Shown piece by piece: positions 12,449 to 48,365 of a stretch of 64,000 bases of DNA; position 1 is the stretch's first letter; each line of letters begins with the position of its first letter. Source of the stretch: Thermoproteota archaeon (GTDB taxonomy: Archaea > Asgardarchaeota > Njordarchaeia > Njordarchaeales > Panguiarchaeaceae); NCBI GenBank assembly GCA_024720975.1, contig JANJXX010000002.1, positions 136,046-200,045 on the forward strand. Reading direction: 5' to 3'. The position numbers and the translations under genes were made by a program. The notes below the pieces were generated by a model. That model did not search any database and was not told the DNA's origin. It worked only from the letters and a program-made list of their open reading frames with translations.

Positions 12449-14064
<1,616 letters not shown>

Positions 14065-37567: not shown

Positions 37568-39016
37568 TTGAGCACAAAATCAATTGAGAGAAAAAGTGTT
37601 CCGCTCTTTATGATATTATTAGTGCTGTCTCTGGCATATTTCGTCTCAACAGCTTTTCTGTTTCATGTAAGTAATGTGAAAGACGCTGAATACTACTCTG
37701 CAGAATGGTTCCTAGAAAACTCTCATGCGATAATACCCACGTTTCCACTCCTTAACATTACTCCACCTAATTACACGCTCCAATTTTCATTCGAGGTTGT
37801 TGGTGACGCCAGAACTTACGGCTGGAGATTTATTATCCTCAGTGAATATGCCACAGGGAAGGGGTGGGTTGTAGGTAATCTTAGCCAGGAGCCTTATCTA
37901 ATGAATACCACGGAGCATTTCTTTCTGGTGAGGTTACTCCCGCTTCCTATAGAAGTGCTTCGAAGCTTTCCTCTAGTAACGCTATGGGATGTTATGCACC
38001 AACGTCCAATTATATCATCATTTTCACCATACATTTCAACAGTTAGCCACTTTGAATGTTACCTAGGGATATTGAAGCCAGATGATATCGTAACCGTGGA
38101 CGTCTCAAGCCCAGAAGAGGGTCTAATAGGCTTCCGGTATTTAGCACACTTCACTCCTACGAACTTTCATGATATGCCTAGTTCTTTTTCCAAAGTTAAT
38201 GAAACAAAGACCGAGGCGCAAAGAAATAGTGCTATTCGTGATTATTTAAAAATTCCCTCAGACTACTTTTCAATGTATCCTAAAGTACTAGAGTTAGTTG
38301 AAAATGTATCACTGCCGCCCGAAAGATCTGTTTATGATCAGCTAACAAGTACTTTAGCTTACATTTTTGCAAACTTTGAGTTAAGGGAGAGTATTAACGT
38401 GGTGCGTGATCCTGTAGCAGATTTTATTGAAAATGGTGGAGGGCCACCCACTGGATTTGTTAATGTCACAGCATTTATACTCAGAGCACTTGGCATACCG
38501 ACTCGTATAGTAATTGGTTTTATTGGTGGGGGCTATTCTAAATCCACAAATACTACGACATACTCACTAGAGAATTTGGCAGCATGGATAGAAATATGGG
38601 ATAAGAACATTGGCTGGATCCCAATTTGGGTTTATCCACTTATGTTCAAGGTGTCTAATATTCTGGCTCCCATAACAGCCCAGGTACAGGCACCCAGAAC
38701 CATAGAGAACTATCCAGCGGCACGTATCAATGAGTCTATAACAATTAATGTAAGTCTGGAGGGGAATTTCAGTACTTTTGAGAATACACAGGCTGAAATA
38801 TATGATCTAAACGCGTCTTTAAGGATCGGTAGCGTAGTCATTCGAAAAATTGGCGAAGGTAAGTATGGGTTCTCGTTTGATTTCAGTTACGATGCAGTTT
38901 ACAGTGGCTCTGGGATGAATGTTGTTTACGGCAGACATGTTATCGTTGTGAGAATGCATTCAGTGTATCTATTCCTAGAACTTGTTTTGCTCAGAATGAC
39001 TACCATCAGCTCGTGA
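37568..39016 (+). CDS. Membrane-anchored transglutaminase-like domain protein, catalytic triad apparently lost
   Basis: N-terminal TM; DPVADF..GGG...ILRALGIPTRIVIGF...AAWIEIW....GWIP. Confidence 0.75.
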   Translation: MSTKSIERKSVPLFMILLVLSLAYFVSTAFLFHVSNVKDAEYYSAEWFLENSHAIIPTFPLLNITPPNYTLQFSFEVVGDARTYGWRFIILSEYATGKGWVVGNLSQEPYLMNTTEHFFLVRLLPLPIEVLRSFPLVTLWDVMHQRPIISSFSPYISTVSHFECYLGILKPDDIVTVDVSSPEEGLIGFRYLAHFTPTNFHDMPSSFSKVNETKTEAQRNSAIRDYLKIPSDYFSMYPKVLELVENVSLPPERSVYDQLTSTLAYIFANFELRESINVVRDPVADFIENGGGPPTGFVNVTAFILRALGIPTRIVIGFIGGGYSKSTNTTTYSLENLAAWIEIWDKNIGWIPIWVYPLMFKVSNILAPITAQVQAPRTIENYPAARINESITINVSLEGNFSTFENTQAEIYDLNASLRIGSVVIRKIGEGKYGFSFDFSYDAVYSGSGMNVVYGRHVIVVRMHSVYLFLELVLLRMTTISS

Positions 39017-40684
39017 GCGTCTTTTCAATGCTGCCTGGATGAGTCCAACGAACAAAGGATGCGGTTTCAAAGGTCTCGAGCTATACTCTGGATGGTATTG
39101 AACACCTATGTAAAACTGATGATCCTTAAGCTCAAAAGCGGCGATATTGCCCTCGGCATCAATTGCACTTACAATGTAGCCATGATTGGCAAATATTTTA
39201 ACGAAATCCCAGACTATATGATAACGGTGTCGAAACCTTTCCCTAGTCTTGTTTGACCCATACAATTCATAAAGCTTGGTATTTTCGATTATTTTAATTT
39301 CGATTCCCCCAAGACGCATTGTACCTCCTAAGTTAGTCACTGATCTTTGCTCTGGAAGTATATCTACTACGGGATATGGGGTTTCTGGGTCTATCTCAGT
39401 GGAATTTGCTCTTTCTAAGCCAACAATATACCGCGCAAAGGCTGCTGTAGCAAGTTGCGCACCAAAACAGATCCCTAGAAATGGTGTGCCAGTTCTTAGT
39501 GCATAATATGCGGCCCTGATCATCCCCTCGGAGCCTCTTTTCCCGAAACCAGGCGTGAGAATTATAGCGTCATAGGCTTGGAGATGTTGAATTCCCTCTC
39601 TTTCGATAGCTTCTGAATCGATAATAGCTATTTCAGGTCTCACTTGATAGTAGGCACTAGCATGTCTTAGTGCCTCTAGTATTGATATATATGTATCCTT
39701 AGTTAGTGTATACTTACCAACAAGTGCTATGTTAACCACTTCTCTCGGGCTTTTAAGTGCGTGTATGAAGGATGACCACTTATTTATAAGCTCTGTATCC
39801 AATGATCGCTTGTCTAGGCCAAGGATATTAAATATGTATTCGTGAATTTTCTGTTGCATCAGCGTGAATATTAACTCATAGATAATAGCAACATTAGGTG
39901 CTACGAAAACGCCATTAATGGGAACATTAGAATATAGCGAAAGCTTTCGTTTGGCTTCTAATGGTAAATTGTTTTCATCTACGCGTGCTACTATAGCATC
40001 GCACGTGAGCCCGGACTCTAGAAGTAGCCGAAAACTATGCTGGGCGGGCTTAGTTTTGAATTCGCCAGTATTTTTTAGAAAAGGAACCCAAACAATATGA
40101 ACAATCATGACAGCTTTGGGAGGTAACTCATACTTAAGTTGTCGGATTGCTTCCAAGAAGACGCTTGCTTCATAATCGCCAACAGTACCTCCTATTTCTA
40201 CGATCGTTACTTCATGTTTACTAGCTATCTCTAATATTCTTCTCTTTATTTCTTCAGTAACGTGTGGAATCAGCTGAACAGTCCTTCCGAGATATTTCCC
40301 AGAGCGCTCTCTTAAGATAACTGAAAGATATACCTGTCCGCTTGTGATATTATGGGATGGGTGCAAATTTTGATGCAAAAATCGTTCATAAGTCCCAAAA
40401 TCTTGGTCAACCTCGCAGATTCTATATGATAAATCACGAGCAGGTCTGAAATCCCAAATTTGATCAAGTACGTAGACCTCTCCATGTTCGTGTGGGTTCA
40501 TTAGACCAGCGTCGAGGTTAATGTAGGGATCTACTTTTGCGATTGTTGTGTTGAAACCGCAGATTTTAAGTATCGTTGCTATGCTTGCTGCTATAGTTCC
40601 TTTGCCGATACCAGATAGTGAACCCGTTATGAATATCAGCTTCAAAAGTAACCACCAAACAGGCATTCGTAGCATAACGTACAA
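38975..40684 (-). CDS. pyrG: CTP synthase
   Basis: SGIGKG, DPYINLDAG, EIGGTVGD, KTKPAQ, GICFG, MRLG, RHRY, QYHPE. Start probably TTG near 40625. Confidence 0.96.
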   Translation of the reverse strand: MYVMLRMPVWWLLLKLIFITGSLSGIGKGTIAASIATILKICGFNTTIAKVDPYINLDAGLMNPHEHGEVYVLDQIWDFRPARDLSYRICEVDQDFGTYERFLHQNLHPSHNITSGQVYLSVILRERSGKYLGRTVQLIPHVTEEIKRRILEIASKHEVTIVEIGGTVGDYEASVFLEAIRQLKYELPPKAVMIVHIVWVPFLKNTGEFKTKPAQHSFRLLLESGLTCDAIVARVDENNLPLEAKRKLSLYSNVPINGVFVAPNVAIIYELIFTLMQQKIHEYIFNILGLDKRSLDTELINKWSSFIHALKSPREVVNIALVGKYTLTKDTYISILEALRHASAYYQVRPEIAIIDSEAIEREGIQHLQAYDAIILTPGFGKRGSEGMIRAAYYALRTGTPFLGICFGAQLATAAFARYIVGLERANSTEIDPETPYPVVDILPEQRSVTNLGGTMRLGGIEIKIIENTKLYELYGSNKTRERFRHRYHIVWDFVKIFANHGYIVSAIDAEGNIAAFELKDHQFYIGVQYHPEYSSRPLKPHPLFVGLIQAALKRRSRADGSHSEQNKF

Positions 40685-40774
40685 TGATACGAAAGTAGAT
40701 TGATGTAGATGCTTAAAGGTATCACTATTATCCGTATGTTAGTCGTGTCCATTTTACTGTTGGAGTTAAACAAT

Positions 40775-40985
40775 GGGGCCCCCAGCGCAGACTCTCCCCT
40801 TCAACCAGTCTCTCCCAGAGCGCCGCTGGCTCGCTTAGCGCAGCTCCCTTCCGGGCCGAAGCGCGTTCGCGCGCCCTAGAGAGAGCGATGACAAACCTCC
40901 CATCCTTCGACGGGAGGCTTGCCATAACCCGCGGCCCCTGGGAACTGATCTTCATCGGGTCGAGTGCTGCAGTGGGGGTCTCCCC
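40775..40985 (-). ncRNA. ffs: SRP (7S) RNA, ~210 nt, S-domain plus helix 5
   Basis: GC-rich island. Helix 8 motif GGCCC-GGAA-GGGAGC, helix 6 GCAAGCCTCCCGTC-GAAG-GATGGGAGGTTTGT, and a long helix 5 closed by CCCCCA/TGGGGG. Confidence 0.88.
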
Positions 40986-41265
40986 TCTCGCACCATCTCT
41001 TTTGGATCTAGTGGCTTGTTTGTAACATGATTATGATGTCCAAATCTACCAGATATTTTTAATCTGAGTATTATTAATCATCCCTTAAGCGTTATATATC
41101 TCCGATGCTTTTTAAGCTTCCAACTTAATTTTGGCAACTGAAACTATTAGGATCATACGCATAGATAATATCGTGTGTTTTTATAAGGGAACAATAAGTT
41201 GATGCGATTTATTCTGCAGATTATAGAAAAACTCTACCAGTACAAACTTTAGCAGAAGACGACAG

Positions 41266-45385: not shown

Positions 45386-45479
45386 TGGCGCCGGGGGGCG
45401 GACTCGAACCGCCGACCTCCCGGTGTCTACTCGATTGCATCACTAACAGCCGGACGCTCTACCACTGAGCTACCCCGGC
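45386..45479 (-). tRNA. tRNA-Asn(GTT) with 19-nt intron at 37/38 (45425-45443), CCA encoded
   Basis: GCCGGGG acceptor; TCCGG-CTGTTA[intron]A-CCGGG; BHB central helix CTGT/GTAG. Confidence 0.92.
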
Positions 45480-48271: not shown

Positions 48272-48365
48272 GCCGGGGTTCACGAGTTGGAACGTGGCGT
48301 GCCTGGAGACATGTCGGAAAGCACGTGGCGTTTGCGCCTCGCGGGTTCGAGTCCCGCCCCCGGCA
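48272..48365 (+). tRNA. tRNA-Ser(GGA) with 11-nt intron at 37/38 (48309-48319)
   Basis: GCCGGGG/CCCCGGC; CGTGC-CTGGAG[ACATGTCGGAA]A-GCACG; long variable arm. Confidence 0.88.

Follow-up and report, generated by a model that had tools for sequence, protein, structure and literature searches.

A signal recognition particle RNA without an Alu domain in an archaeon of the class Njordarchaeia, with terminal bulge-helix-bulge geometry that suggests circular maturation

We analysed a 64,000-nucleotide stretch of DNA, referred to here as the window, from an Asgard archaeon of the class Njordarchaeia (assembly GCA_024720975.1, contig JANJXX010000002.1, positions 136,046 to 200,045). The minus strand of the window carries a gene for signal recognition particle (SRP) RNA. 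Candidatus Njordarchaeota is an Asgard group whose metagenome-assembled genomes come from hot-spring and hydrothermal sites. The gene lies in a GC-rich island (40768-40990; 60-72% GC, against 25-45% in the surroundings) and was matched to RF01857 (Archaea_SRP) in an Rfam model search with 64.7 bits and an E value of 4e-14. This score falls under the RF01857 gathering threshold of 96.5 bits because helices 1-4 are absent. A default Rfam run therefore passed over the locus, and standard annotation misses the SRP RNA. A preliminary description, made from the letters of the window, had proposed that a GC-rich region of about 210 nucleotides (nt) folds as helices 5, 6 and 8. This was borne out both by the RF01857 alignment, in which these three helices have high posterior probability, and by the single-sequence fold (-138 kcal/mol, z-score -6.6 versus shuffled sequences). 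A 75-amino acid (aa) open reading frame at 40728-40955 arises incidentally from the RNA gene and its high GC content. The coordinates of the features are collected in Table 1.

In the consensus fold of 10 homologues, compensatory changes occur in 27 of the 78 pairs; the fold comprises helix 5, helix 6, helix 8 and an extra hairpin. Helix 6 is present and covaries, so the RNA does not have the bacterial 4.5S form. The GGAA tetraloop of helix 8 and its loop strands are invariant across the 10 homologues. Within the extra hairpin, pair 116/134 makes a compensatory switch from GC to AU in 4 of 10 sequences. When the full-length relatives are folded singly, they show a comparable small hairpin. Archaeal SRP RNAs are described as having no helix 7. 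The alignment to RF01857 is collinear throughout, so the gene order is not permuted as it is in Thermoproteus. Genes for SRP19 and for an SRP54 with its M domain are encoded in the genome. There is also a weak second match resembling the SRP54 M domain (20.7 bits; contig 25, 4028-4237, plus strand), within a frame of 526 aa that contains a single in-frame TAG.

The RF01857 alignment shows a deletion of helices 2-4 and pushes the outermost pairs of the model into the AT-rich flank, where they are mismatched. The preliminary description had seen no Alu domain in the flanks of the RNA. The archaeal SRP model likewise aligned no Alu part there, and a search of the 1.36-Mb, 81%-complete genome at E<=10 found no Alu domain or other SRP match elsewhere. 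In a different genome (G032), this type of search was able to recover a lone Alu fragment. The locus is the only detectable SRP RNA of the cell and is an archaeal SRP RNA S-domain: helices 5, 6 and 8 are kept, whereas helix 1, helices 2-4 (the Alu domain) and the proximal portion of helix 5 are missing.

The same form occurs in related organisms. Four congeners match RF01857 only from about 82-89 to 286-292, and a metagenome scan gave four more distinct loci with the Alu-less form, plus near-duplicates. Scans of the collections used a 17-nt DNA pattern that was too unspecific, so that the 119 and 90 matches were mostly due to chance; 8 metagenome loci survived a second filter. Measured from the central helix described below through the 3' segment, the Alu-less RNAs are 214-228 nt long, with predicted products of 207-221 nt. 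Two sister families of the class, which comprises 14 species genomes in total, have full-length SRP RNAs of 330-350 nt that score above the Rfam cut-off. A fourth family, represented by a 0.9-Mb genome (G007), has an even smaller GC-rich SRP RNA of about 150 nt (L030:1554-1706). Loss of the Alu domain is real, heritable and lineage-specific. Archaeal SRP RNAs have been described as about 300 nt long with an Alu domain, with erosion only of the small domain in some groups (2010 review, PMC2905702). A literature search found no description of an Alu-less archaeal SRP RNA or of the processing of Asgard SRP RNA.

Table 1. Positions in the window of the SRP RNA gene, its parts, its predicted product and the proposed processing enzyme.
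Feature	Position	Strand	Basis or remark
SRP RNA gene as encoded, S-domain only, without helices 1-4 (214 nt)	40772..40985	-	RF01857 match, fold, consensus fold
5' strand of central 4-bp helix, GGGG	40982..40985	-	pairs with 40775-40778
5' 3-nt bulge AGA	40979..40981	-	closed by central helix and helix 5; predicted cut 40980/40979
Helix 5, start and end	40978-40973; 40784-40779	-	
Helix 6, with GNAR-type tetraloop GAAG at 40905-40908; SRP19 site	40888..40925	-	RF01857 alignment, covarying stem
Extra 5-bp hairpin between helices 6 and 8	40872..40887	-	consensus fold (alignment A2 columns 115-135)
Helix 8, with GGAA tetraloop at 40849-40852 and conserved 3' loop strand; SRP54 site	40832..40871	-	RF01857 alignment
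3' strand of central helix, CCCC	40775..40778	-	contiguous with helix 5 end
3' 3-nt segment ATT	40772..40774	-	open here; predicted cut 40773/40772
Predicted excised and ligated product, 207 nt	40773..40979	-	from predicted bulge-helix-bulge cut positions
EndA, catalytic-type splicing endonuclease, 214 aa; proposed processing enzyme	12449..13093	-	PF01974 (95 bits) and PF02778

The two ends of the RNA pair just outside helix 5. They had been described as a helix of 4 base pairs (bp) with a 3-nt segment 3' of each strand and a weak outer helix, and the minus-strand sequence confirms this layout. Two features of a bulge-helix-bulge (BHB) are present in the window, namely a central helix of exactly 4 bp and a 3-nt 5' bulge that is closed by helix 5 (h'). 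The closing position -1/+4, at which the nucleotide ahead of the central helix faces the fourth one behind it, is A/G, leaving the window with no outer helix (h) and the second 3-nt bulge unclosed. The motif in the window is of the one-flank HBh' class. The classes hBHBh', hBH and HBh' have been scored as canonical in a 2026 preprint that also cites broad-specificity EndA enzymes cleaving relaxed motifs (10.64898/2026.10.13.758758).

Conservation of the terminal motif was assessed in 15 sequences of the class by counting coordinate-anchored extracts in Python; the MAFFT alignment A2 moves the 5' end of the RNA in the window by 2 columns and was not used for these counts. The central helix is paired in 60/60 cells and all four of its positions covary, with GC, AU and GU pairs at position 1 and GC and AU pairs at positions 2, 3 and 4. 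When the partner strand is slid by 1-3 nt, only 0-4 sequences stay fully paired. The 5' bulge is 3 nt long in every sequence (AAA in 13 of 15, AGA in the window and AAT once), the inner helix pairs in 15/15 at each of its first six positions, and the 3' segment begins with A in 14/15. Pair -1/+4 forms in 13 of the 15 with five pair types, the exceptions being the window and G002, and none of 20,000 partner permutations reached this count (P<5e-5). Other registers of this type pair in 5-7 of 15 sequences, except for the off-register cell -3/+7 at 11/15. Because the -1/+4 pair covaries, the 3' bulge is fixed at exactly 3 nt. The 15 sequences are mutually related, and pair types still switch several times within and between families. 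The 4-bp/3-nt geometry first noticed in the window is kept, with covariation, across the set.

In these sequences pairing at positions -2 and -3 is no more frequent than expected by chance, and the outer helix measures 0-1 bp (as many as 5 bp at a single metagenome locus). No outer helix that is longer or offset was found in the class, as the energy of a duplex between the 40-nt leader and the 40-nt trailer is no better than that of shuffles. G002 alone gave a leader/trailer duplex with a z-score of -3, and the register of this pairing may differ from that of the motif. The geometry of the class is an exact 3-4-3 bulge-helix-bulge closed outside by a single selected base pair. The motif in the window is the most relaxed of its group, being without the closing pair held by 13/15.

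In six full-length SRP RNAs from the sister families helix 1 is intact, and beyond it stand the same elements, namely the 4-bp helix, the 3-nt bulge and, on the 3' side, the 3-nt segment. The order of elements is a 4-bp purine/pyrimidine helix, a 3-nt A-rich bulge and the inner helix, and on the opposite strand the inner helix, 4 nt and a 3-nt A-rich segment. The motif directly adjoins the ends of the Rfam model on the outside, lying at -7/+4 or -8/+5 in five full-length relatives and at -20/-1 in G013, where the Rfam match starts inside the RNA. These relatives bear on whether the motif could be a scar of the Alu deletion, with the 4-bp helix as a remnant of helix 1 and the 3-nt bulge as the leftover of helices 2-4. 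The canonical 5' strand runs through helix 1, the Alu domain and helix 5, the 3' strand is continuous, and a deletion would leave just such a shape. A scar is refuted by these relatives, in which both helix 1 and the Alu domain are intact and the motif lies outside helix 1; we give this origin next to no chance. The preliminary description had joined the lack of the Alu domain to splice-type ends. Both the absence of the Alu domain and the conserved geometry stand, whereas the motif is not tied to Alu loss, being found in full-length relatives as well. It has been kept through the loss of helix 1 and the Alu domain, which involved separate deletions on both strands. This argues for selection on the motif and for a protection of the ends that has become independent of helix 1.

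In another Asgard class a canonical 3-4-3 BHB brackets full-length, non-permuted SRP RNA genes, with an outer helix of 6-12 bp that covaries between genera. We tabulated such SRP RNAs in 12 genomes (families f7 and f24), with predicted products of 304-312 nt; examples are the loci L021 at about 1488-1825 (G037), L029 (G016), L047 (G072) and L052 (G091). A canonical BHB at the SRP RNA is absent from two other families of that class.

The enzymes that would be required for cutting and joining at such motifs are encoded. Besides the catalytic-type EndA in the window, the same contig encodes a second, divergent EndA paralogue with a weak Sen15-like match outside the window (L038:1429-1998), and RtcB is encoded in the genome. 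Two EndA paralogues, consistent with an (alpha-beta)2 architecture, have been reported in 44/60 Asgard genomes (10.64898/2026.10.13.758758).

Other RNAs of the genome were compared with the SRP RNA. The 5S rRNA gene is permuted (L067:1523-1688, contig 27). As read from the sequence, its motif consists of a 15-bp outer helix and a 4-bp central helix with the bulges AAG and AAA; an inner helix is absent. The 5S motif is the mirror image of the SRP motif, with one bulge closed and one open. Cutting after the second bulge nucleotide yields a predicted ring of 129 nt whose junction would restore the loop C sequence of a Sulfolobus 5S rRNA. The 5S RNA regains loop C only if both sites are cut and joined, so a functional 5S needs such processing. 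The predicted SRP junction would obey the cut rule that we applied to loop C of the permuted 5S. The terminus of RNase P RNA is a simple 16-bp helix (P1), from which it follows that a 4-bp bulged end is not the usual closure of a linear stable RNA here. The motif as a general end of the stable RNAs of this genome was considered and rejected, an apparent match in RNase P RNA being a register artefact of a G run; the motif is specific to the SRP RNA and 5S in this genome. No BHB was detected in the 16S processing stem (16S rRNA flanks, L069, contig 11), which is a perfect 25-bp helix. The gene for tRNA-Asn (GUU) at 45389-45479 on the minus strand, which ARAGORN miscalls as a stop-anticodon tRNA, has a 19-nt intron at 37/38. 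Read from the sequence, the BHB of this intron has two GU pairs in its central helix and one inner closing pair only.

Based on these features, we propose that a two-subunit EndA would cut the SRP transcript in both 3-nt segments, after the second nucleotide of each, and that RtcB would join the resulting 2',3'-cyclic phosphate and 5'-OH ends. The product would be a covalently closed SRP RNA of 207 nt. Its junction would cap helix 5 with a loop of 7 nt, composed of the CCCC strand together with three bulge nucleotides, and closure of the ring would take over the end-protecting role of helix 1. We put the probability that the SRP RNA is excised by EndA and closed by RtcB into this ring at roughly 0.52. 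The parts of the proposal differ in strength. EndA probably acts on the motif in Njordarchaeia; its action in the window, where the closing pair is absent, is somewhat less assured and still favoured; and the chances that a lasting ring is the main form of the SRP RNA are about even. The identity of the RNA, its lack of the Alu domain, the conserved, covarying geometry and the encoded enzymes are established; cleavage, ligation and the ring as the working form are what we infer. More tentatively, and at odds somewhat short of even, Njordarchaeia and at least one other Asgard class may use the tRNA-splicing machinery to mature a non-permuted SRP RNA into a covalently closed working ring, and in the genus studied here this closure may have made helix 1 and the Alu domain dispensable, giving rise to circular RNAs of 207-221 nt as the first Alu-less archaeal SRP RNAs.

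Several observations weigh against excision and closure. The window is without even a single closing pair, so the 3' site is fully open. Leader/trailer pairing is similar to that of shuffles in Njordarchaeia, whereas it is better than shuffles in the lineage with the canonical BHB. The end of the G007 RNA differs and consists of a 4-bp stem with an asymmetric GAUG/GA internal loop, which is k-turn-like and not of BHB geometry. Crude TATA spacing suggests a leader of a few nucleotides, with no clear TATA at the usual distance in the window, but as a proxy for the start site this spacing is noisy in AT-rich flanks and carries little weight. In addition, cleavage may be followed by re-opening, as in 16S and 23S rRNA. 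The absent outer helix, the seemingly very short leader, the G007 end with its resemblance to a stem and internal loop rather than a cut site, and the plain helix-1 ends of most Asgard SRP RNAs would all suit a mature RNA that is linear and retains the 4-bp helix and 3-nt bulge, uncut, as a terminal clamp or protein-binding kink. Such an RNA would leave unexplained that the 3-nt spacing covaries on either strand, as does the closing pair at exactly +4. It would also not explain why an organism of hot environments should rely on 4 bp at the end of this stable RNA while its RNase P RNA has 16 bp, nor why the same layout recurs with a textbook BHB in another Asgard class. We consider a linear, uncut RNA unlikely.

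EndA might instead trim one or both sites without leaving a lasting ring, the product being linear or re-opened after a transient circle. Trimming of this kind shares the structural evidence for the closed ring, and there is precedent in rRNA circles derived from BHB motifs, which are re-linearised in the textbook pathway (PMC12918454). On the other hand, the BHB-derived SRP RNA ring of Thermoproteus is the stable bound form (PMC4731332). A linear product without the 5' GGGG would also have an unpaired 3' tail beside helix 5, a poor end for a thermophile, leading us to regard trimming without a ring as quite improbable.

The proposed 207-nt ring can be compared with known systems. The only SRP RNAs that we know to be circularised through a BHB are those of two Thermoproteus species, whose genes are permuted. 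For these species, T. tenax and T. uzoniensis, circularisation has been documented with RNA-seq and a Northern blot as well as by cleavage in vitro (Plagens et al. 2015, PMC4731332). The system predicted here would share with these a BHB-type motif in the leader and trailer of the SRP RNA, a heterotetramer-type endonuclease with RtcB, and a ring that replaces the helix-1 ends in a thermophile. It differs in that the gene is collinear rather than permuted, the predicted junction caps helix 5 rather than lying in helix 8, the Alu domain is absent rather than kept, and the motif is of the one-flank HBh' class. As in pre-16S and pre-23S rRNA and tRNA introns, a collinear RNA is bracketed by a 3-4-3 flank motif, for which cutting by EndA and ligation by RtcB are predicted here. 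Unlike the rRNAs, which have long outer helices and circles that are usually re-opened, the outer helix is 0-1 bp and the substrate would be the SRP RNA. Circular SRP/7S RNA from collinear genes, as proposed here, has been described in Sulfolobus, Halobacterium and Thermococcus; those circles are minor species or segments, and the parts of the two sources on which we draw describe no conserved terminal BHB (PMC3326292; 10.64898/2026.03.23.713588).

With the canonical 7S SRP RNA (RF01857) the Alu-less RNA shares helices 5, 6 and 8, the GNAR loop of helix 6, and the GGAA loop and 3' loop strand of helix 8. It is about 100 nt shorter, is missing helices 1-4 and has the extra hairpin between helices 6 and 8. 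Like bacterial 4.5S RNA it is a small, Alu-less SRP RNA, but 4.5S RNA consists of helix 8 and part of helix 5 without helix 6 or SRP19, whereas helix 6 and a long helix 5 are retained here. Asgard archaea are the closest relatives of eukaryotes, and a complete loss of the Alu domain among them has a bearing on the purpose of the protein-free archaeal Alu domain. If the proposal is true, the splicing endonuclease and RtcB would serve generally in the maturation of stable RNAs in these lineages, covering SRP RNA in two Asgard classes and the permuted 5S.

Immediately downstream of the SRP RNA, and also on the minus strand, is the gene for CTP synthase (pyrG; 38975-40684), identified by eye from its N-terminal motif; it likewise neighbours the SRP RNA in two congeners (G003 and G004). 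Just upstream of the SRP RNA gene and divergent from it is a weak match resembling a C/D box RNA (41028-41101, plus strand; Rfam sn2317, 20.9 bits, E 0.38). Plagens et al. noted that the permuted SRP RNA gene, too, has C/D box genes next to it (PMC4731332). At 48272-48365 on the plus strand ARAGORN calls a 94-nt tRNA with a 4-base anticodon, which is absent at the Rfam gathering score and probably contains an intron.
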